Positions 6,681-64,000 of a stretch of DNA of 64,000 nucleotides are shown piece after piece. Position 1 is the first letter of the stretch. Every line of letters starts with the position of its first letter. Made by a program: the position numbers and the translations under genes. Under the pieces are notes generated by a model. That model had not been told where the DNA came from. It ran no database searches and saw nothing but the letters and a program-made list of their open reading frames with translations. Origin of the DNA: an uncultured Gammaproteobacteria bacterium. Lineage in GTDB: Bacteria > Pseudomonadota > Gammaproteobacteria > Arenicellales > CAJQKF01. The DNA lies in assembly GCA_965652415.1 (NCBI GenBank), contig CBFGVH010000004.1:3071-67070 (forward strand), written 5' to 3'.

Positions 6681-7720
6681 TGTGCAAGCCTCATGTCTGT
6701 GTTTGCGGGGCGGTTGGGAAACCAGGGCACGCGACCCTCGAGGATCCCGGAAGCGTCCACGATCTCGGCAACCGACTCTTCCTGCCGGTAGGCCATGATG
6801 TGGATGCCGGCCACTCCCTTGATTTCACGAATTCGCTGAATCAGTTCGATGCAGATCTTCTTGCCTTCGAGCCTGGGCTTTTCGGCCTTGAGCAGCCGCT
6901 CGATCACGTCGTCGGGAATATGCACGCCCGGCACGTGGTCGCGGATCCACGACGCGGCCCGCCCCGACGCCAGCGGCCCGACCCCGACCAGGATGAACAC
7001 CTTCTCGTCCAGGCCCCGGTCGCACACCTGTTCCATGAACCGCTCAAGGCGCGGCACGTCGTAGCAGTACTGGGTCTGCACGAACTGCGCCCCCGCGGCC
7101 ACTTTCTTCGCCAGCCGGTCGACGCGAAAGTCGAGCGGCTCGGCGAACGGGTTCTCGGCGGCGCCGAGAAAAATCTTCGGCGAGAAGTCGAGTTTGCGCC
7201 CGCTCAGGAACTCGGACTCGTCGCGCATTCGCCGCGCCGTGGTCAGCAGCGACATGCAGTCGAAGTCGAACACCGGCTTGGCGCCCGGCTGGTCGCCGGC
7301 CTGCACGCCGTCCCCGGACAGGCACAGGATGTTCGCCACGCCCATCGCCGCCGCTCCGAGAATGTCTCCCTGGATGGCGATGCGGTTCCGGTCGCGGCAG
7401 GAGATCTGCATGATCGTCGAGTAGCCGACGCGCGTCAGAAGCGCGCACACGCCGACGCTCGACATGTGGCAGTTGGCGCCCGATCCGTCGGTCGCGTTGA
7501 TCGCATCGACGTAGCCGTCGAATATCCTCGCCCTCAGGTACACCTCTTCCGGGTCCGCGGAGTCCGGCGGGGCCAGTTCCGCCGTTACCGCGAACTTGCC
7601 CCCGCGCAGCACGCGCTCGAACCGCCCCGGCGACACGTGCCCGGGAAGTATCGGCAGAGAATAACCCGGAACCGGCTCGTCTTCAAAGTACATGGCCGAA
7701 CTCCCCGCCCGACGGGGCAT
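6677..7720 (-). CDS. metF: Methylenetetrahydrofolate reductase (MetF, MetV-associated type)
   Basis: 347 aa. 'FAVTAELAPP', 'DAINATDGSGA', 'QISCRDRNRIAIQGDILGAA..GV.NILCLSGD'. ATG at 7720; an alternative ATG lies at 7693. Confidence 0.85.
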   Translation of the reverse strand: MPRRAGSSAMYFEDEPVPGYSLPILPGHVSPGRFERVLRGGKFAVTAELAPPDSADPEEVYLRARIFDGYVDAINATDGSGANCHMSSVGVCALLTRVGYSTIMQISCRDRNRIAIQGDILGAAAMGVANILCLSGDGVQAGDQPGAKPVFDFDCMSLLTTARRMRDESEFLSGRKLDFSPKIFLGAAENPFAEPLDFRVDRLAKKVAAGAQFVQTQYCYDVPRLERFMEQVCDRGLDEKVFILVGVGPLASGRAASWIRDHVPGVHIPDDVIERLLKAEKPRLEGKKICIELIQRIREIKGVAGIHIMAYRQEESVAEIVDASGILEGRVPWFPNRPANTDMRLAQ

Positions 7721-55692: not shown

Positions 55693-55800
55693 GTCGACCG
55701 CACGGTCGACCATTGGCAAACCGGCTGCAACTCCCGCCGGTGGACGGCAACGTCCCTCCCGTGATTGAGCGTCCCCCGGAACCCCCGGGGGACTTTTTTT
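55693..55800 (+). ncRNA. Candidate structured small RNA or leader ending in an orphan terminator (5' end undefined)
   Basis: Three hairpins precede the terminator: GTCGACC-GCAC-GGTCGAC (55693..55710), CCGGC-N10-GCCGG (55721..55740) and GGACG-GCAA-CGTCC (55742..55755). No plus-strand CDS lies upstream. Confidence 0.3.
55771..55800 (+). terminator. Rho-independent terminator (plus strand)
   Basis: GTCCCCCGG-AACCC-CCGGGGGAC followed by TTTTTTT. The flanking genes ubiK and ettA are on the opposite strand. Confidence 0.8.
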
Positions 55801-55837: not shown

Positions 55838-55973
55838 TTTGCCGCACCTCCCGGCCGGTCCCCATGAATCAACGCCTCCCGACGCCGCCGAATCGCGGCA
55901 GCGGACCTTCCCCCGCCCTGGACAGCTCCAGGGCCGCTGCCGGGTCTTGCCCGCGAGCGGCGGCATCCGCCGG

Positions 55974-56714
55974 ATGGGCATCATGATGCAACGGCTCCAC
56001 CGGCTGGTCGACGAACATACCGTCGCCGGCAGGCGCTTCGCCTGGTTCATCCAGGCGCTGATCGTCGTATCGATGATCAGCTTCACCATCGAGACCCTGC
56101 CCGACCTGCCTGCCGACTGGATGCGCGCGTTCGCGTGGCTGGAGATCGTGGTCGTGTTGATCTTCACTTTCGAGTACGTACTTCGCGTGCTTTGCGCGCC
56201 GAGCAAGCCGCGCTTCATCTTCAGTTTCTTCGGACTCGTCAACCTGGCGGCCATTGCGCCCTTCTATCTCGCCACGGGCCTGGACCTTCGCTCGGTGCGG
56301 ATCCTGAGACTGCTGCGCCTTCTGCGCATCATCAAGCTGTTCCGCTACAACCGCGCCGCCCAGCGCCTGGCACGCGCCTTCGTCCAGGTGCGTCACGAAC
56401 TGGTGCTTTTCATCGTCCTGATCGTCGTCCTGCTGTACCTGTCCGCGGTCGGCATCTACTACTTCGAGAACGAAGCGCAGCCCGACAAGTTCAAGTCGGT
56501 GCCGCACAGCATGTGGTGGGCGCTGGCGACCTTGACCACCGTGGGCTACGGCGACATCTACCCGATCACCGCCGGCGGCCGCTTCTTCACCTTCATCGTC
56601 CTGATACTCGGCCTCGGCGTAATCGCGGTGCCAACAGGCCTGGTCGCCTCCGCGCTGACCAACGCCAGGGACGACGAGCCGAACGACGAGAGCCGGCCCC
56701 CGTCAGTACAGTGA
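55974..56714 (+). CDS. Voltage-gated (6-TM, Kv-type) potassium channel
   Basis: ATG at 55974. S4 with basic residues at every third position ('RSVRILRLLRLLRIIKLFR') and selectivity filter 'TLTTVGYGD'. Short C-terminus with no RCK domain. Confidence 0.85.
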   Translation: MGIMMQRLHRLVDEHTVAGRRFAWFIQALIVVSMISFTIETLPDLPADWMRAFAWLEIVVVLIFTFEYVLRVLCAPSKPRFIFSFFGLVNLAAIAPFYLATGLDLRSVRILRLLRLLRIIKLFRYNRAAQRLARAFVQVRHELVLFIVLIVVLLYLSAVGIYYFENEAQPDKFKSVPHSMWWALATLTTVGYGDIYPITAGGRFFTFIVLILGLGVIAVPTGLVASALTNARDDEPNDESRPPSVQ

Positions 56715-56808
56715 TGATGCGCTTGCGAACCGGGGCGGCGCGAAACGGCCTCAGTACAACAATCGCCCATCGTCGAACGACGGTCGCATCGGGGGGATCC
56801 CGGCGACC

Positions 56809-57612
56809 CTATTGCATCTCCATCACGCGGAGGCGGATCACTTCCCAGGCACCGAACGAGGCAAAATGCGCATAGACGGCGTCCAGCAACCGCGTCTGGC
56901 GCCACTCCTCGATGACGTCGGCGGGCAAGGCGTCGTATTTCTTCCGGTCGATCACATGGAAACCACGCAACCGGCGTGTCTCCTCGCCCGGTAGCAGCAG
57001 GCTGGCCTGCCCTTCCGAGAGAAGGTCGAGCTCGTGCAGCACCCGGCAGCACGTCCTGGTGTGCGCTTCGGAAGCGGCGTAGTTGCGGCAGAATTCAATC
57101 GCCTCTCTCAGGGTTTTCGTCGGCTCCTCGCTGTGGTACAGCGGCCGGATATCGCCCTCCGACACCATCGGCGCCTCACGGTCGATGCACACGGTCCACT
57201 GATCGGTCTCGGCGACGCGCGCGGCGAGGAACGGATAGCGCCGGACGTAGGCGGGAACATAACGCCCTTTCGCCCAGGTGCCGTCCGACTCGATGAACAG
57301 GTTCCTGCCGTCCATGCCGCCAAGCAGCGCATAGGCCATGGGGTCGGACCCGCCGGAGAAGACAATCGGGTAGTGGCGCTGGGCTTCGGCGAACTCATTG
57401 ACGAGCAGCGGCACGTGGTCGACTTCGGCGCTGAAACTCATGTCGGCAGCATCCTTCACCGACAATGCGCCATGCGCTGCCGGCGTCAGGATCTCGATCT
57501 TTTTGTAGAACATCGGAAGGACCCGGTCGGCGGGCGTCTCCCCCGGGGGATGCGTACCCGCAGCCGGCGGATTCGGCTGTTCGTTCATTACAGAATCGAG
57601 GCGTTCAACCAT
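56809..57612 (-). CDS. SapC family protein
   Basis: SapC-like core 'FYKKIEILTPAAHGALSVKD...HYPIVFSGG...ALLG...YVPAYVRRYPF'. The ATG at 57612 lies 9 nt after AGGAGGAG. The core is preceded by a roughly 33-aa Pro-rich extension. The track ORF starts at a TTG at 57621. Confidence 0.8.
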   Translation of the reverse strand: MVERLDSVMNEQPNPPAAGTHPPGETPADRVLPMFYKKIEILTPAAHGALSVKDAADMSFSAEVDHVPLLVNEFAEAQRHYPIVFSGGSDPMAYALLGGMDGRNLFIESDGTWAKGRYVPAYVRRYPFLAARVAETDQWTVCIDREAPMVSEGDIRPLYHSEEPTKTLREAIEFCRNYAASEAHTRTCCRVLHELDLLSEGQASLLLPGEETRRLRGFHVIDRKKYDALPADVIEEWRQTRLLDAVYAHFASFGAWEVIRLRVMEMQ

Positions 57613-57652
57613 GGCTGCCAACTCCTCCTGAGTCGTCGTTAGTGGTGGTTGC

Positions 57653-59722
57653 TTAGGGGTCCGGAGCCGCTGGCGACAGCATGATGCCGCGATCGCACAA
57701 GGCCTGGATCTCCGGTCGGTGGGTCGCGAGAACGACGGTCATGCCGCGTTCGCGCAATCGTTCCAATATGCGCGTACTCTGCTCGAGCGACAGATGATTG
57801 AAGGCGTCGTCGAAGAACAGGCACTCATCGCTTTTGTACAATGCCTGTGCCAAGAGCAGGCGCTGAACCTCACCCCGGCTCAGACCTTGTTCCTCGAGCC
57901 GCTCGCGGCCGTCCGACCCGACGAAGAACCCCAAACGGTCCCACAGCTCCGTCAGGCGCAGCATGCCGATGAGACGTTCGGTATCGACCCCCTGCTCGTT
58001 GGAAACGAACTCGGCCAGCGAACCGTGAATGAATTCATCGTCGGCGAATACGAAACCGGCCGGCGCCGGACCGTCCAGCGGCCGGCCGTCAAGATACACG
58101 CCGCCTTGAAGCGGAAGGCGCAAACCCGCGAGCAGCTCGAGCAGCGTCGTCTTGCCGGCGCCGCTCGCTCCCGCAAGGTTGACGACCTCGCCTTTGTCGA
58201 TGCGCAGGTCAAGGTTGCGAAACAAGTCCGCATCGACACCGTTGTAGCCGAAACTGACACTGCGCGCCTCGATCCGCGAGCACCAGCTGGCAGGAGACGG
58301 CGAATCTTCCGCAGGCCGGTCCCCGGCATCGGGGCTTGCCTGCTCCGCTGCGTCCAGGACTTCGGCGACACGCCGCGCGACCGGGCGCAGTGCGCAGTAG
58401 CGCCGTGTCGTCTCCGAGATTTCCTCGAGCTGCGTGGACAGCATCACGGCCAGCATGCTGGCCAGCATGTAGCCGCCATAGGTCAATTGACCATCGATCA
58501 GAAGGTACCCGCCGGCGAAGGCCGACAGCGGCAGGGAGAGCGCCGCCATACTCTGGCGAGCCGCGGTATAGCCGATGAGGCGCCGTCCCCGATCGGCCTC
58601 GGCGGCCTGCCGTCGGCCGAGCGGGGGCAGGCAGGTGGCAAGCAGATGGTTCTGCAGACCGGCGGCGTAAAAGCGCAGGTAACCGCTGGCCCTCTGGGTT
58701 TGCAGCGCCTGGTATCGGGCGTTCTCGTCGTGTGCACGGAGCTGTCGTTCCCGGTTTCGCGCACTGACGACAAACAACCAGGCGAGCAATACGAGCTGGG
58801 GCAACAGATGGACGATGGCGATCAGCGGCGCCATGATGCCGAGGACGGCGATCGCCAAGACCGCGATCAGCACATGCCGCCCCATGTTGTGTGTGGCCTG
58901 CAGGTAAAAGCGCAGGCACTGATCGAGATCGCGCAGCCGGCCGAACAACTCACCCGCGAAGTGAGATTCAAAGAAGCTCGTTGGCCGAATGTAGAAGCGC
59001 TCGAGGAACGAGCGCTTCATGCGGATGGCCAGGTCCGACGACAGGCCTTCGAAGCGCATGCCCTGACAGTGGCGCAGCATGAAACGGGCGGCGAGCACCG
59101 GAATACCGGCCAGTGCCAGCACGTAGCCCCATTGGGTCATCTGGAATTCGACGACATAGTCGAAGAATGTTCGCGCAATGCCGCCGAACAGCAGCTCGAC
59201 GAGGAACACGAGTGCGCTGGCCGCGAGGCCGACGGCGAACACACCCTTCAGTTGCATTGAGCCGACCGGCGCCAGTGAATGCAGGAACCGCCACGGCGAG
59301 CGGTCGCGGTCCCCTGACGCCCTGCCGTTGACCTGAACGTCCAGGCACACACCAGTGAAATGACGGTCGAATTCCGCAAGCTTGAGCTTTCGGCGTCCCG
59401 ACGCCGGATCATTGATCCAGGCGTGCTTTCCCCGGATTTCCTCCAGGACCACGAAGTGCCGCAGGTCCCAGTGCAGGATGATCGGTCGGCCCGCTTTCCT
59501 GAGACTTTCCATTCCCTTCTTGACGACCAGGCAGCGATGGCCAAGCGACTGGGCGCCACGCTGTATCTGGGCGACGGTCGCACCGTCGCGCCCGACCGCG
59601 CAGAGCCGTCGCAGATCGAGGGTGGAATGCCTTTGGCCATGGTGCTCCAGAACGATACCAAGGCAGACCGCCCCGCAGTCGACGGGATTGCCCTGAAGCC
59701 GAACGGGTGTCCTGGTGATCAG
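57653..59722 (-). CDS. C39-peptidase-domain ABC transporter (bacteriocin/RiPP-type maturation exporter)
   Basis: C39 triad: Cys in 'NPVDCGAVCL', His in 'LRHFVVL', Asp in 'WINDPA'. Six-TM domain. NBD with 'GASGAGKTT', 'LSRGE', 'LFFDDA' and 'ATHR'. The 5' end is uncertain: the track ORF begins at a GTG at 59902 (184-nt overlap), and 59722 is a CTG in a CTGA junction. Confidence 0.85.
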   Translation of the reverse strand: MITRTPVRLQGNPVDCGAVCLGIVLEHHGQRHSTLDLRRLCAVGRDGATVAQIQRGAQSLGHRCLVVKKGMESLRKAGRPIILHWDLRHFVVLEEIRGKHAWINDPASGRRKLKLAEFDRHFTGVCLDVQVNGRASGDRDRSPWRFLHSLAPVGSMQLKGVFAVGLAASALVFLVELLFGGIARTFFDYVVEFQMTQWGYVLALAGIPVLAARFMLRHCQGMRFEGLSSDLAIRMKRSFLERFYIRPTSFFESHFAGELFGRLRDLDQCLRFYLQATHNMGRHVLIAVLAIAVLGIMAPLIAIVHLLPQLVLLAWLFVVSARNRERQLRAHDENARYQALQTQRASGYLRFYAAGLQNHLLATCLPPLGRRQAAEADRGRRLIGYTAARQSMAALSLPLSAFAGGYLLIDGQLTYGGYMLASMLAVMLSTQLEEISETTRRYCALRPVARRVAEVLDAAEQASPDAGDRPAEDSPSPASWCSRIEARSVSFGYNGVDADLFRNLDLRIDKGEVVNLAGASGAGKTTLLELLAGLRLPLQGGVYLDGRPLDGPAPAGFVFADDEFIHGSLAEFVSNEQGVDTERLIGMLRLTELWDRLGFFVGSDGRERLEEQGLSRGEVQRLLLAQALYKSDECLFFDDAFNHLSLEQSTRILERLRERGMTVVLATHRPEIQALCDRGIMLSPAAPDP

Positions 59723-61737
59723 CGGCGGGTCTCCAGCTCGATGACCGTTTCCGCGAATGCGTGCATGTGCGAGCGGTGCGATACGAAATAGATCTGCTCG
59801 AACAAGGGCCGGATACTGGTGAATATGACTTCTTCCATGTCCATCGGCAGACCCGACATGGCCTCGTCCAGGACCAGGATTGCACTTCTCTTGATGACGC
59901 ACTGCGCAAGCGCCATCCTTTGCCGCTCACCTGTCGAGAAGTCCCGTCGGGCGTCGCCGATCGGCGTGTTCAGTCCAAGCGGGAGTGCTCTAACGCGGTC
60001 GACCAATCCGACCAGTTCCAGCGACTCCCACAGACTCCTGTCGCCAGACGTGGTCGCACCGAATAGCAATAGATTGTCGCGCACCGTCCCCGGCAACAAC
60101 TGCACGTTCTGATCCGCGTAGGCGAAGATGCGCCGGCGCTCGTTCATGGAAAGACGCGTCGGATCCACTCCGAGGACCTCGATCGCACCCGAGTCCGGCG
60201 CCTGTAGCCCGAGCAGACAGTTCAGAAATGTCGTCTTGCCGGCTCCCGACTCGCCCGCGATTCGCACTACGCGTGGCCCCTCGATGCGAAGCGTCAGGCT
60301 CTCGGCGTCCTTGAAGCGGCAGCCGTGAGGCAGGCGCAGGCGGTGACACTCGACGCTGGCATTCGCCTGGGTGACAGTGGGGGTGTTCAACGCGTGAACC
60401 TGGGCCGCTTCCTCCAGCAGATCCTTAGCCTCGAGCAGATCGATCCGGATAGCGCCGACTTTCCCGATGGCCGTCGCCACACGCGGAATCATCCGGTAGG
60501 TCTGCGTGACGAGATAAAGCATGATGAAGGCAAGCCCCACGGTGAGCGCATTGCCGGTCTGCGCGGCGAAGGCGACAAGCACCGTGAGCGCGAAGATCGC
60601 CAGCAACTGGGTGACATCCATCAATGTCGCCTCGGCCTCGCGGGCACGGGATTCGCCCGCCGCGACGCTGCGGCGGGCGTCGGCGATCTCCCTCTGGCAC
60701 TGCTGCCAGTGGGCGATCGCCCTGCCGGCGGCATCGTAGAAATTCAGGCGCGTGATGTTGCCCATGATCCGGTAAAGGTAGCCGTCGCTCTCGGTCTCCT
60801 CGAACACCAGCCTTCGCTGACGGCGGCCTTGACGCCACTGAAAAAATACCTGGGGCACGGTGCCGACCACGGCGATAACGAGCGTGGCGAAAAACAGGAA
60901 TGTCGGCAGGCGCAGGTACAGCAGGATCAGAATCGGCGCAATCGCAAGCGAGGCGACGACTGCGATTACAGCATCCGATGTCGCCTTTCCGACCCGAGAC
61001 ACGACGGCGCACTGCTCATGCGCCCGGTGGATACCCCTCACAGCGATGTACTGCGGTCGCATGGACCATAAAAGCGAGAGTTTCAGAATCTCCGCCCGCT
61101 CCTCGATCAGAGAGTCCAGGTGGAACTGCACCCGTTGCGCCAGGAAATGGCCGAGACCGATCGTTGCCGCCGCCCCGGCCATGAGCCAGGCAATGGCCCA
61201 GAAGGCACCGAGATTCTGGGTCGGGACGACATAGGCCAGGATGCTGAAGTTGGCGATGAACAGGAGCGATGCGGTCAGAGCGATCAGCGCCTGGCACAAT
61301 AGGGCCTCGCGCATCAGCCCCCGCGCCGGTCGGAGCACGAAATCGGCGACCCTGCGGATCGTGATCGGACGGTCCAGGACAAACGGCTCGAACAGCACCC
61401 GAAGATCGGTCAGGCCAAACTGCTCCGCGTCCGGAAGATCGAAACGCTCACCGCTTTCGAGCGCCAACCCCCGAACCGTATCGCCTCTGAGCAGTGCCGG
61501 TACGTACTCGAGCAGGACCGGGCCGTATTCCCCGTATTGTCCGATCCAGAGTGGATAGCCGCGCAGACGGTCGGTTCCCGCCGTGACCGGCACCGCAATC
61601 ACTCCCAAGTGCCGCTCGAGATAGACGATCCAGTCGGAGAGGTCACCACACGCCGGCCGCGGCAGGTCGCGCAAGCGTTCCGGCGCACTGAGGGCATTCC
61701 CGAGGAACTGACGGAGGACGTCAGGCGCCACCGTCAC
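59719..61737 (-). CDS. ABC transporter permease/ATP-binding protein, non-peptidase partner
   Basis: About 150-aa N-domain without a Cys/His/Asp triad, a 6-TM domain, and a canonical NBD ('GESGAGKTT', Q-loop 'YADQNV', 'STGERQR', 'ILVLDEA', 'VSHR'). The GTG at 61737 overlaps the upstream stop (GTGA). The track ORF starts at a TTG at 61755. Confidence 0.85.
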   Translation of the reverse strand: MTVAPDVLRQFLGNALSAPERLRDLPRPACGDLSDWIVYLERHLGVIAVPVTAGTDRLRGYPLWIGQYGEYGPVLLEYVPALLRGDTVRGLALESGERFDLPDAEQFGLTDLRVLFEPFVLDRPITIRRVADFVLRPARGLMREALLCQALIALTASLLFIANFSILAYVVPTQNLGAFWAIAWLMAGAAATIGLGHFLAQRVQFHLDSLIEERAEILKLSLLWSMRPQYIAVRGIHRAHEQCAVVSRVGKATSDAVIAVVASLAIAPILILLYLRLPTFLFFATLVIAVVGTVPQVFFQWRQGRRQRRLVFEETESDGYLYRIMGNITRLNFYDAAGRAIAHWQQCQREIADARRSVAAGESRAREAEATLMDVTQLLAIFALTVLVAFAAQTGNALTVGLAFIMLYLVTQTYRMIPRVATAIGKVGAIRIDLLEAKDLLEEAAQVHALNTPTVTQANASVECHRLRLPHGCRFKDAESLTLRIEGPRVVRIAGESGAGKTTFLNCLLGLQAPDSGAIEVLGVDPTRLSMNERRRIFAYADQNVQLLPGTVRDNLLLFGATTSGDRSLWESLELVGLVDRVRALPLGLNTPIGDARRDFSTGERQRMALAQCVIKRSAILVLDEAMSGLPMDMEEVIFTSIRPLFEQIYFVSHRSHMHAFAETVIELETRR

Positions 61738-62639
61738 CCGCCGTTCTTCACCCAAGAGGGTACGGAATACTCGCCATACCAGCGGCGCAGAGCCGGCCAG
61801 AACACCCAGTCAGCAAGGGGACAGTGCAGTTCCGCCCCGCGTCTCCACGGACGTAGCCGCACCGTTCCCGGCTCCGGGTAGTCCAGAAGGTGATGCCCCG
61901 CCCTGTGACGCCGTGCCAGAAATCGCGCGATGGAGATCCCCTCCACGTCGACGGCCACATCGGGTCGGGCATAGAAATGCAAACGACTCGACGTCTTTCC
62001 GGGCTGGTACCGGTCGGGGAACAGACTCGGCGGCATGTCGCCAAAGTAAATGAGGACGGTCCGATCGCTCATCTCGCGACCGAGTGTTGCCAACCAGGCA
62101 CCCTCCAGCCTCAGGCACACCGTTTCGACCTGCAGAACACGCTCGACGAGTATTTGGCCCGTTGCCGCGCGTGGATCCAGTGGATCTCGCAGGTGCAGGA
62201 GTATCGCCTTGCGGAATCCATGTCCAGCGACCAGAAGCTGGATCGTCGCATAGAGCACCGAGAAAACGCAGCAATGGTGTACGCTCTCAAGGATGAGCGG
62301 ACGGTCGGTTGGCGGCGATATCTCACCGAGTTCGAAGCGAAGGCTCTTCTTCACAGACAGGAAATAGTCCCGTGCCTGTCCGAGACTCATGGTCGGCATG
62401 ACGAGCGGTTCGAACCAGTAGTCGGCCAGGTTGCGCACGCCCCGCTCGTCTTCCTCCGGGGCGATTGCCGAAAGTCCCTCGATGCGCGACAACACCAGCC
62501 GGGACAGCAATTCGTCCTCGCGCCAACGATGCAGTAGTCGAGTGCGAGTCGCACGAGGGCTTTCAGACGTGCTGTAAGCGCGCATGATCGTAAGATCGAG
62601 CCGATCCTGGATCTCGGATTCGTCGGCGTTCGGGATCAT
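61734..62639 (-). CDS. Hypothetical protein (301 aa), embedded in the export operon
   Basis: ATG at 62639, 25 nt after the HlyD stop; the stop overlaps the next gene's start. No signal peptide, no TM helix, and no motif I can assign. There is only weak collinearity with LpxL-type acyltransferases (see findings). Confidence 0.6.
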   Translation of the reverse strand: MIPNADESEIQDRLDLTIMRAYSTSESPRATRTRLLHRWREDELLSRLVLSRIEGLSAIAPEEDERGVRNLADYWFEPLVMPTMSLGQARDYFLSVKKSLRFELGEISPPTDRPLILESVHHCCVFSVLYATIQLLVAGHGFRKAILLHLRDPLDPRAATGQILVERVLQVETVCLRLEGAWLATLGREMSDRTVLIYFGDMPPSLFPDRYQPGKTSSRLHFYARPDVAVDVEGISIARFLARRHRAGHHLLDYPEPGTVRLRPWRRGAELHCPLADWVFWPALRRWYGEYSVPSWVKNGG

Positions 62640-62664
62640 GAAGGGATTTCCGTACGACAGTCAG

Positions 62665-64000
62665 CTAGCCCTGGTTGAAAAAATCCGCGTAGAACGGCAA
62701 CAATACGGCTATTGGCGAGGTGACTTCCACCCATATGCGCGTCGTGACCATCGTACCAACGGAAAGCGGCCGGCTCAGGGTATCGCCATCGAGTCGCAGT
62801 GCACCGTCTGGATCCCGCTCGAAGCCGAGATTCGCGACGATGCCGGCATGGGAGCCTGTCAGCATCTGTGCGAGTTCGGCGCTGCCGACTAGCGCCTGGG
62901 CCTCGATCGAAGTGGCGATGTAGTCGCTGACATACGTCACTCGGGCCTCGATCTGGGAACCGATCAGCGACTTCTCGAAACCGGGTTTGACGAGGGCCCG
63001 ATCACCGACCTGGACGCGCTTGGCATCCTGGGGTTGCAGCAGCGCCACGGCCACCAGCCCGCTACCGCGCCATTCGTCCCCGATGGGAATCAGGTCCGCA
63101 AAAACGGGGACGTTCGCGTCGTCGAACAACTCGGTTTGCGAAAGCTCGAGACGCTCCAGTACACCGAGGCCGTTGCCGGCTGCCGTGATCACCGCGCGTT
63201 CATCAGCAATGCGCAGATCGAACACCACACCCGGCGCCAGATTCCGGATGGCTTCGTGGAGTTCGGACTCGAAGTCGGTGTCATCCTCGCCATATTCGAT
63301 CGTCATCGCCCTGTCGACCACAGCCAGCGTTATCTGTCCGCGCCGGGCGCGCGGCGAGATCACCATGAGCATGCCCTGGTGCTGGGGCACCAGGTTGACC
63401 AGGGCCACGGGCTCACCCTGGCCGACCAATTGGCCGGGCGCCTTCTTCATGGCGATCAGCTCGCCTTCATATGGCGAGACGATGTTCTCGCCCATCCAAC
63501 GCTGACGTTCGGCATTCAGCAATGCGCTGCGGCTGGCAAGTGCGCGCAGTTCCAGTTCCATTCGATCGATTTCCCACCTGCCTTTTGCGCTCTCCAGAGG
63601 GTTCAGGATCCTCTGTTCCTCGGCATGGCTGGCGTCGATCTTCTGGTTGATGTCGCTCAGCGCGTGCTGCATCCGCTCACGTTCGCTCCTGGAGTGAGAA
63701 AGTGCGGCGGCGCTCTCGAAAGAGACTGCCATGCTCCGCAGCCGGGCACGCTTGGCGAGCACGCTGTGGAGTCTGTCGTCCAGCGCCTTGATTTGTTCGT
63801 CATGGTTCCGGAGGCCGTCCTGCTTCTGTGCCTCCAGCAGCGATGTCTCGGCCAGGTACCGGCGGCGGGCATCTTCGTAGGCGGCCCTAGCGGGCGGATT
63901 GGAGACCCGCAGCAGGATGTCCCCGGCGCGGATTCGGGTTCTGGCAGCATCCGGTCGACCCGTCACCGTTCCCTGCCCCAGGGAGGTGATCTCGCGCACG
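62665..64000 (-). CDS. HlyD-family membrane-fusion/secretion protein (5'-partial, continues beyond the window)
   Basis: More than 444 aa with no N-terminal TM anchor in the window. Long coiled coil ('YLAETSLLEAQKQDGLRNHDEQIKALDDRL...', 'RWEIDRMELELRALASRSALLNAERQRW') and beta-barrel segments ('IVSPYEGELIAMK', 'GTMVTTRIWV'). Confidence 0.8.
   Translation of the reverse strand, partial: VREITSLGQGTVTGRPDAARTRIRAGDILLRVSNPPARAAYEDARRRYLAETSLLEAQKQDGLRNHDEQIKALDDRLHSVLAKRARLRSMAVSFESAAALSHSRSERERMQHALSDINQKIDASHAEEQRILNPLESAKGRWEIDRMELELRALASRSALLNAERQRWMGENIVSPYEGELIAMKKAPGQLVGQGEPVALVNLVPQHQGMLMVISPRARRGQITLAVVDRAMTIEYGEDDTDFESELHEAIRNLAPGVVFDLRIADERAVITAAGNGLGVLERLELSQTELFDDANVPVFADLIPIGDEWRGSGLVAVALLQPQDAKRVQVGDRALVKPGFEKSLIGSQIEARVTYVSDYIATSIEAQALVGSAELAQMLTGSHAGIVANLGFERDPDGALRLDGDTLSRPLSVGTMVTTRIWVEVTSPIAVLLPFYADFFNQG

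Follow-up and report, generated by a model that had tools for sequence, protein, structure and literature searches.

What does a bacteriocin-type exporter carry when no cargo gene is visible beside it? The question is raised by the last 7.2 kb of a 64,000-nt stretch of contig CBFGVH010000004.1 (GenBank assembly GCA_965652415.1) from an uncultured gammaproteobacterium of the Arenicellales; we refer to this whole stretch, positions 1 to 64,000, as the window. A preliminary description of the window, made from its letters alone, read five co-directional minus-strand genes at this end as an export locus of the kind that serves bacteriocins or ribosomally synthesized and post-translationally modified peptides (RiPPs). 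It also stated that the 7.2 kb contain neither an outer-membrane factor nor a small open reading frame (ORF) with a double-glycine (GG) leader, which we can confirm, and it expected the cargo and the operon start past the window's end. Our analysis bears out the outline of that proposal and replaces its cargo. With a probability of roughly two in three for the explanation as a whole, the five genes form the distal end of a longer operon, which probably staples the Cys-rich tail of an 813-residue cargo protein, cuts off its leader of ~170 residues and exports the remainder.

The operon beyond the window

A search for exact copies of the 301-residue protein encoded in the window (p301 hereafter) led to metagenome contigs, among them L001, which is 100% identical to window positions 56001-64000 and runs 7 kb further. 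Because this identity extends across 8 kb, we take L001 to be the continuation of the window. Upstream of the HlyD-like gene it adds three genes, which encode a 550-residue radical S-adenosylmethionine (rSAM) enzyme with a SPASM domain, the 813-residue protein and a 274-residue Rce1-like (CPBP) intramembrane protease. The operon on L001 thus has the order CPBP protease, cargo, rSAM/SPASM maturase, HlyD, p301, ATP-binding cassette (ABC) protein, C39-peptidase ABC protein (C39-ABC) and SapC. It is a locus for the maturation and export of a peptide or protein. Both the cargo and the operon start lie where they had been expected. Past the CPBP gene there is a gap of 740 bp without genes, followed by an unrelated PA0069-type rSAM gene. 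We considered whether a small precursor might be encoded in this gap: the ORFs in it are GC-rich and due to chance, no usable GG leader occurs among them and none recurs in other loci, and the idea was discarded when the 813-residue cargo was recognised. Within the gap (L003 1421-2164), one short ORF has a Tat-signal-like (twin-arginine translocation) sequence, NRRHLLSALAAVG, stops abruptly and is possibly the remnant of a gene.

The part of the operon that lies in the window, with its surroundings, is as follows.

62665..64000, minus strand: HlyD-like periplasmic adaptor, cut by the window end; best NCBIfam match TIGR03794
61734..62639, minus strand: p301, 301-residue protein of a new family; starts 25 nt after the HlyD stop
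59719..61737, minus strand: half-transporter of the ABC exporter type, 672 residues, lacking a peptidase domain; PF00005, E 1.5e-24
57653..59724, minus strand: C39-peptidase ABC exporter, 690 residues if the CTG at 59724 is the start; Peptidase_C39, E 1.2e-29
57622..57629, minus strand: Shine-Dalgarno sequence of SapC, AGGAGGAG, 9 nt before its ATG, by direct reading of the sequence
56809..57612, minus strand: SapC-family protein, 267 residues, the last gene of the operon; PF07277, E 1.1e-57
55839..56714, plus strand: voltage-gated-type ion channel gene, convergent and outside the system; Ion_trans, E 2.6e-36

The ORF list and its translations place the five genes where the preliminary description had them. 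Its junctions are also correct: 25 nt separate the HlyD-like gene from p301, the non-peptidase ABC gene starts at a GTG that overlaps the p301 stop as GTGA, and 40 nt lie between the C39-ABC stop and the SapC ATG. Mapped onto L001, the HlyD-like gene has 445 of its 514 codons inside the window and its true start ~209 nt past position 64000.

The cargo, its maturase and p301

Related loci were collected through the p301 family, in genomes and metagenomes, and through the rSAM family, and were annotated by tblastn with the window's proteins; the metagenome scan for p301 loci used a 12-sequence alignment. Two layouts recur. In the exporter type (type A) the order is cargo, rSAM, HlyD, p301, ABC and C39-ABC, with the CPBP gene before or after. 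This type was found in the window's organism, in five metagenome lineages (L007, the fragments L019/L020, L021, L037 and L038) and in three isolates, Pelagibaculum spongiae (L039), Desulfogranum mediterraneum (L044) and Parashewanella tropica (L045), whose homologous proteins bear generic names only. Across phyla, the transport trio keeps cargo, rSAM and p301 as its neighbours. Type B begins with a LysM-bearing Cys-rich protein, which is followed by a free-standing homologue of the cargo's leader domain (~150-166 residues), rSAM, p301 and a SnoaL-like protein; neither a transporter nor a CPBP gene is present. Its full layout is present at eight loci in Bradyrhizobium and related genomes and at about eight loci in soil metagenomes.

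The cargo of the window's organism consists of an N-terminal domain of ~150 residues with an acidic linker, three PPC-like repeats (Pfam scores one of them, and the other two show as recurring DxDW motifs) and a tail of 193 residues. The linker ends ...DREISGAELLLHGMPVGG, that is, in ELLLHGMPVGG, and domain and GG linker together make up the leader region of ~170 residues. The tail has 20 Cys. Most of them stand in C-G/A-x-N/D motifs, whose spacings alternate between 7 and about 11-13 residues, and the protein ends ...GVNVLPFVPSC-stop. Where the preliminary description had suggested scanning for short ORFs with NHLP/Nif11 or classical GG-type leaders, the gene next to the rSAM/SPASM maturase instead encodes a full-sized protein with a leader region of its own. 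Across loci the C-(G/A)-x-(N/D) motif recurs 17-44 times in the tail, whose end, Px(L/V)PSC-COOH, is invariant, and a Cys-rich ORF ending Cx[VI]N[VIA][ILF]Px[LV]PSC-stop is present in all 22 distinct loci with enough upstream DNA. The cargos of the three isolates (373-401 residues; 387 in Pelagibaculum and 401 in Parashewanella) pass from leader domain and GG-type motif directly into the Cys-rich repeats, while those of L038 (940 residues) and L007 (>2,172 residues) have PPC repeats inserted, as in the window's cargo. In Bradyrhizobium valentinum (L011 ~6900-7150) the stored record of the cargo gene contains a masked run of N.

The N-terminal domain is homologous between the fused form of the exporter-type loci and the free-standing form of the Bradyrhizobium-type loci. 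All five fused leaders with a visible N-terminus have an acidic linker and the motif (I/V)SxxELxL(H/N/Y)G(M/I)PxG(G/A), and all five come from loci with a C39-ABC; the aligned free-standing domains have neither linker nor motif. Since the GG extension is confined to fused leaders in C39-ABC loci, the putative cleavage site tracks the C39 peptidase. The leader domain has no NCBIfam match at E up to 10, hence none to NHLP (TIGR03793) or Nif11 (TIGR03798), and no meaningful match in Pfam or the Protein Data Bank (PDB). A search of NCBIfam with leader and Cys-rich tail, again at E up to 10, gave CefA at 0.64 as the sole match, which is meaningless. An early impression that the domain is SCP2-like found support in no search and was dropped.

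The maturase, whose gene lies past the window's end on L001 and L003, has the CX3CX2C motif of radical-SAM enzymes (CNLACGYC at residue 141) and the seven Cys of a complete SPASM domain (residues 373, 392, 432, 435, 441, 445 and 462; TIGR04085, E 2.4e-11). Its best NCBIfam match is TIGR04463, a RiPP maturase model, and its further matches (Clo7bot, FlmE/OhkG, CefB, PapB and CcpM) are all maturases of Cys-rich peptides. Judged by its score, the enzyme belongs to a sister clade of TIGR04463, and this rSAM clade comprises 190 clusters. It shares the CX3CX2C motif and full seven-Cys SPASM domain with rSAM/SPASM thioether maturases (TIGR04463, Clo7bot, CefB, PapB and the ranthipeptide enzymes, QhpD), and the cargo tail resembles the substrates of such enzymes in its many regularly spaced Cys, each with Asn or Asp at +3. 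This pattern brings to mind the Cys-X3-Asp rings of PapB, with the difference that the motif here is CxxN/D and not CxxxD. Unlike thioether RiPPs, moreover, the candidate substrate module is 170-360 residues long, forms the C-terminal part of a large protein and has the invariant PSC-COOH end.

The preliminary description counted p301 as an extra gene of the pump. It is in fact the most faithfully conserved partner of the maturase: it adjoins the rSAM gene or sits one gene away in every locus with enough sequence, and it persists in the loci that have no transporter. We conclude that p301 belongs with the maturase and the cargo, not with the pump, and regard this as firmly shown. The protein defines a rare, discrete and new family: a word-indexed search turned up four clusters among 5.8 billion proteins, and a full HMMER search of 1.84 billion representatives turned up 46. 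It has no sequence match in Pfam, NCBIfam or the PDB, and when 36 members were compared with Pfam one by one, none of the 36 had a match at E up to 10. A local match of its HH motif to YdjC-type deacetylases (E 0.059) was judged to be chance. Among the 36 members E77, H121, D201 and W278 are invariant, and H122, S127, R157 and a C-terminal CPLxDWxFWP block are nearly so.

A first idea of what p301 may do comes from its predicted fold. AlphaFold2 models were built from a four-sequence alignment, with a predicted local distance difference test (pLDDT) of 67, and from 36 sequences, with a pLDDT of 93.9 and a predicted template-modelling score of 0.91. Both models retrieve the mycobacterial acyltransferase PatA as the sole significant PDB neighbour; with the better model, the top nine Foldseek matches are nine PatA chains (E down to 3.7e-8, probability 1.0, template-modelling (TM) scores of 0.36-0.46), followed by a plant glycerol-3-phosphate acyltransferase and, more weakly, by NG domains of signal recognition particle (SRP) GTPases. 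In PatA, His126 is the general base and is assisted by Glu200 (PMC8519569). The p301 model places an invariant His and an invariant acidic residue after beta-strands, His121 following strand 115-119 and Asp201 following strand 194-199; this parallel to His126 and Glu200 of PatA is a lead from modelling. Unlike PatA and the lysophospholipid acyltransferases (LPLATs; PDB 5f2t, 5oce), p301 has no HX4D motif; it has no sequence similarity to these enzymes, and its partner is a protein-modifying rSAM enzyme rather than a lipid pathway. Our leading idea, at about even odds, is that p301 may transfer an acyl or some other group to the cargo.

Several copies of the system have features of their own. 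In Bradyrhizobium (L011 and L013-L017; for example L013 92-6039) type B lies beside a gene for a protein with DUF1521, the domain of the NopE type III effectors, and one for a 1181-residue LysM protein. In the complete genome of Bradyrhizobium sp. RDT10 (L018 7614-10697) the N-domain, rSAM and p301 each match in 2-3 shifted pieces, and this copy looks pseudogenised. Integrase/transposase (rve) genes flank the exporter-type cluster of L038 (5062-5901 and 18679-19137), an arrangement that fits mobility and the patchy distribution of the system.

The exporter and its accessory genes

The preliminary description compared HlyD, peptidase ABC and second ABC with the export trio of nitrile-hydratase-leader/Nif11 microcins (NHLM), reportedly described by Haft and co-workers in 2010 and represented by TIGR03794 (HlyD), TIGR03796 (C39-ABC) and TIGR03797 (ABC). 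As a statement of similarity this was right, as NHLM models are the top NCBIfam matches of all three proteins; as a statement of membership it failed, as all three fall below the curated equivalog cut-offs. The HlyD-like protein reaches 53.6 bits as the window's fragment and 75.7 at full length (from L003) against a cut-off of 156 for TIGR03794 NHLM_micro_HlyD, the C39-ABC 299.1 against 853.3 for TIGR03796 NHLM_micro_ABC1 and the non-peptidase ABC 148.1 against 709.4 for TIGR03797 NHLM_micro_ABC2. Pfam finds ABC_tran in both transporters and Peptidase_C39 in the second one, with no match for the HlyD-like fragment or p301. The architecture of HlyD, peptidase ABC and second, non-peptidase ABC beside RiPP maturase genes is present, and as with NHLM it comes with a long, protein-like leader ending in Gly-Gly and with coupling to RiPP maturases. 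Apart from the scores, this locus differs from NHLM in a leader domain unrelated to NHLP and Nif11, in a cargo of 370 to >2,100 residues, in the p301 gene inside the transporter block and in the occurrence of the leader domain as a separate protein in loci without an exporter. On these sequence comparisons, the exporter probably works like the NHLM trio and is not a member of it.

The C39 peptidase was said to have an intact catalytic set, and it has: Gln10, Cys16, His89 and Asp105, numbered from the CTG start, are all in place (PF03412, E 1.2e-29). For the window's protein, the set is complete only if translation begins at 59724 or earlier. When aligned, the L007 orthologue puts the N-terminus at the CTG, and a CTG occupies the start position in four independently assembled contigs (L001-L004). 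The C39-ABC genes of L007, L021, L037 and L039 have an ATG at the same position, overlapping the end or the stop codon of the upstream gene; in L038 the ATG start gives an overlap of 20 nt. The only canonical starts available to the window's gene are GTG 59902, with a 184-nt overlap with the upstream gene, and ATG 59512, which deletes the catalytic Cys.

The non-peptidase ABC protein has a canonical Walker B motif (ILVLDEA) and is 54% identical to its L007 orthologue; a degenerate C39-like domain was looked for at its N-terminus, and no similarity was found. The two ABC proteins presumably form a heterodimer. We also considered a conserved asymmetry of their nucleotide-binding domains and ruled it out, as the Walker B Glu of the C39-ABC is replaced by Asp in the window and L021 only and is kept in six other homologues. 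Unlinked TolC proteins are common for type I-like secretion systems. A TolC/OEP-family fragment at the contig end of L021 (5859-6413, minus strand), convergent to the CPBP gene, is the sole outer-membrane factor that adjoins any copy.

The CPBP protease has its EExxxR, FxxxH and HxxxN motifs intact. As in CPBP sorting (myxosortase, MrtS) and CAAX processing, an Rce1-like protease here accompanies a substrate with an invariant C-terminal Cys. Unlike the sorting substrates, that Cys is the very last residue, followed by no transmembrane segment or basic tail; the CPBP gene is not universal in the system, and its matches to the Mrt models are far under their cut-offs.

SapC had been set apart from the trio in the preliminary description, which left its retention in homologous loci to a co-occurrence check. 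It is clearly a member of its family (195.6 bits against PF07277, gathering score 28.9), and it was found in one of the eight type A loci with a visible downstream end, the window's own, and in none of the Bradyrhizobium-type loci. Its adjacency is therefore specific to this lineage, and we conclude that SapC is a lineage-specific addition. Because the gap is 40 nt, the Shine-Dalgarno sequence is strong and there is no convincing terminator between the two genes, SapC is probably co-transcribed with the C39-ABC. Its nearest relatives among 5.8 billion proteins are only 40% identical, and the two that were inspected sit in unrelated contexts. The name comes from the sapCDEF operon for S-layer secretion in Campylobacter fetus, where, as here, a SapC-family gene lies in one operon with genes of the ABC/HlyD type that secrete a large surface protein; unlike the situation in that operon, SapC is absent from all other copies of our system. 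More distant plasmid homologues (~31-37% identity) immediately follow genes that encode giant secreted proteins, or are close to such genes, at four of the seven loci inspected, on plasmids of Thalassospira (L035), Azospirillum (L036), Aminobacter (L041) and Agrobacterium (L043). These giants are thousands of residues long, TpsA-like or with autotransporter repeats, and echo the sapCDEF context. A role connected with large exoproteins is plausible. For the SapC family, an association with tryptophan halogenases, TonB receptors and JmjC enzymes has been noted and an enzymatic function predicted (Iyer et al. 2010, PMC2938197).

On its downstream side the operon is bounded by the convergent ion-channel gene. 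A strong GC hairpin followed by T7 (window ~55770-55795, L001 15262-15284) lies between that gene and a UbiK/BMFP-like gene and is likely a terminator. The flanking genes that were scanned are ordinary chromosomal ones, such as those for ABC-F, phosphoenolpyruvate synthase, release factor 3 and AcrB. A hint of foreign origin, drawn earlier from low guanine-plus-cytosine (GC) content, stands in direction, with 63.1% GC in the locus against 67.5% in the remainder of the window and a GC content at third codon positions of 0.69-0.84 against 0.85-0.92 in flanking housekeeping genes; in size, the shift is modest. We regard the hint as reasonable.

A proposed route for the cargo and its rivals

From the gene content, the conservation and the motif correlations described above, all of them observed, we infer each chemical step of the following route. 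The 813-residue cargo would be made in the cytoplasm with its N-domain leader and GG-type linker; domain, motif and conservation are seen directly. The rSAM/SPASM enzyme would join residues within the C-terminal tail by many small cross-links; most likely these are thioethers from Cys to Asn/Asp, as in the ranthipeptide/QhpD type. Thereafter p301 may modify the cargo a second time, possibly by acyl transfer, and this is the weakest step. By analogy with its family, the C39 domain would cut after G-G/A, a cleavage and export step supported by the occurrence of the GG extension only where a C39-ABC is present. A mature protein of ~640 residues would leave the cell through the ABC/C39-ABC heterodimer, HlyD and an unlinked TolC-type channel, as is known for the exporter family. 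The CPBP protease may process the product or provide self-protection, and SapC may be an accessory added by this lineage.

A number of observations weigh against this route. The three rSAM members score 449.9, 443.6 and 444.2 bits against a TIGR04463 cut-off of 525, and in the literature we searched there is no description of a product of the TIGR04463 family. The type of cross-link named above is guesswork, based on the enzyme family and the C-[GA]-x-[ND] motif. For p301, the TM scores of 0.36-0.46 to PatA are low, a sequence-level relationship is lacking, and HHxxxxS (H121-H122-x4-S127) stands where LPLATs have HX4D. The GG motif of the cargo has a spacing three residues longer than the classical LSxxELxxIxGG. 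The window's C39-ABC has a CTG at its expected start, within a CTGA overlap (59724-59721), and the Asp in its Walker B motif (CLFFDDAF, window ~57820-57855), which leave its expression or activity in this organism not assured. A TolC-type outer-membrane factor is encoded neither in the locus nor among the scanned flanking ORFs of the window. Finally, a protein of ~640 residues with a heavily cross-linked tail is an unusual passenger for a bacteriocin-type ABC pump.

We weighed these points against other readings of the locus. The trio could be a canonical NHLM microcin exporter that serves small NHLP- or Nif11-leader peptides encoded elsewhere, with unrelated genes as its neighbours. The best NCBIfam matches of the three transport proteins are what this would predict, yet the scores lie 2.9 to 4.8 times under the curated cut-offs, the leader matches neither NHLP nor Nif11 at E up to 10, the 7 kb upstream and the 740-bp gap hold no small GG-leader ORF, and the trio keeps its cargo, rSAM and p301 neighbours across phyla, which together make this reading hardly credible. 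Alternatively, the Cys-rich tail might form disulfides or bind metal as a module of a secreted adhesin or enzyme of an ordinary kind, with the rSAM enzyme acting elsewhere, for example on the N-domain or as a maturase of the anaerobic-sulfatase type. Modification of the tail is indeed deduced from sequence, PPC and LysM domains are ordinary extracellular modules, and rSAM/SPASM enzymes also mature sulfatases and QhpC. We nevertheless think this improbable: tail and rSAM co-occur strictly, in 22 of 22 loci, the cargos of the three isolates are leader and Cys-rich tail only, the nearest NCBIfam families of the enzyme are all peptide maturases with Cys-rich targets (Clo7bot, CefB, PapB, CcpM), and disulfides are not expected in a tail that is made in the cytoplasm.

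The remaining alternatives concern single components of the proposed route. Instead of an acyltransferase, p301 may be a non-catalytic partner, such as a scaffold that binds substrate or leader or a chaperone of the rSAM enzyme, or else a hydrolase or a different transferase whose likeness to PatA is limited to an alpha/beta core. TM scores under 0.5, the missing Pfam and PDB sequence matches, the LPLAT HX4D motif not being conserved as such and the SRP-GTPase NG domains among the weaker fold matches all favour such a reading, which falls only a little short of an even chance. Against it, PatA fills the top nine Foldseek places at probability 1.0 with the poor and the excellent model alike, a glycerol-3-phosphate acyltransferase also appears, and the invariant H121 and D201, each after a beta-strand, match the layout of His126 and Glu200. 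It has further to be asked whether the product is a bacteriocin-like toxin and the CPBP protein its immunity factor rather than a processing or sorting protease. CPBP/Abi proteins act as immunity proteins in class II bacteriocin loci, and C39-ABC export, patchy distribution, lower GC and the insertion-sequence elements around the L038 copy would also suit a toxin. We consider this unlikely, given that the CPBP gene is missing from L038, L045 and every Bradyrhizobium-type locus, that cargos of 813 to >2,172 residues with PPC repeats are more like surface or matrix proteins, and that the CPBP protein has its weak NCBIfam matches among proteases of the sorting type (MrtS and the myxosortase core).

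Taken together, our comparisons suggest a system of RiPP-like maturation by an rSAM enzyme with C39-ABC export, in which the protein-sized cargo and the leader used in cis or in trans would be unusual and the PatA-like partner new. Pfam, NCBIfam, the PDB and the literature we searched hold no description of the cargo family, the leader domain, p301 or the operon. More tentatively, and with the odds somewhat against so broad a proposal, these loci might define a hitherto undescribed class of RiPP proteins, in which a globular leader of ~150 residues, in cis (and removed at its GG site by the C39-ABC) or in trans (in Bradyrhizobium), directs an rSAM enzyme to staple Cys to Asn/Asp at dozens of places in the C-terminal module of secreted proteins that are 370 to >2,100 residues long, followed by a second, PatA-like modification, possibly an acylation tied to the PSC-COOH end.

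Almost all known radical-SAM RiPP systems act on short peptides, and here whole proteins with 17-44 repeated Cys motifs appear to be handled by the same logic of leader, maturase and C39-ABC export. The leader domain and p301, both of them conserved, matched neither a Pfam nor an NCBIfam model. The leader domain, fused in some loci and free-standing in others, offers a natural experiment on leaders that work in trans. Three cultured isolates carry compact versions of the system, with cargos of about 380 residues, and make its chemistry directly testable, and the Bradyrhizobium version, with its LysM-bearing cargo and adjoining DUF1521 gene, may bear on symbiosis.

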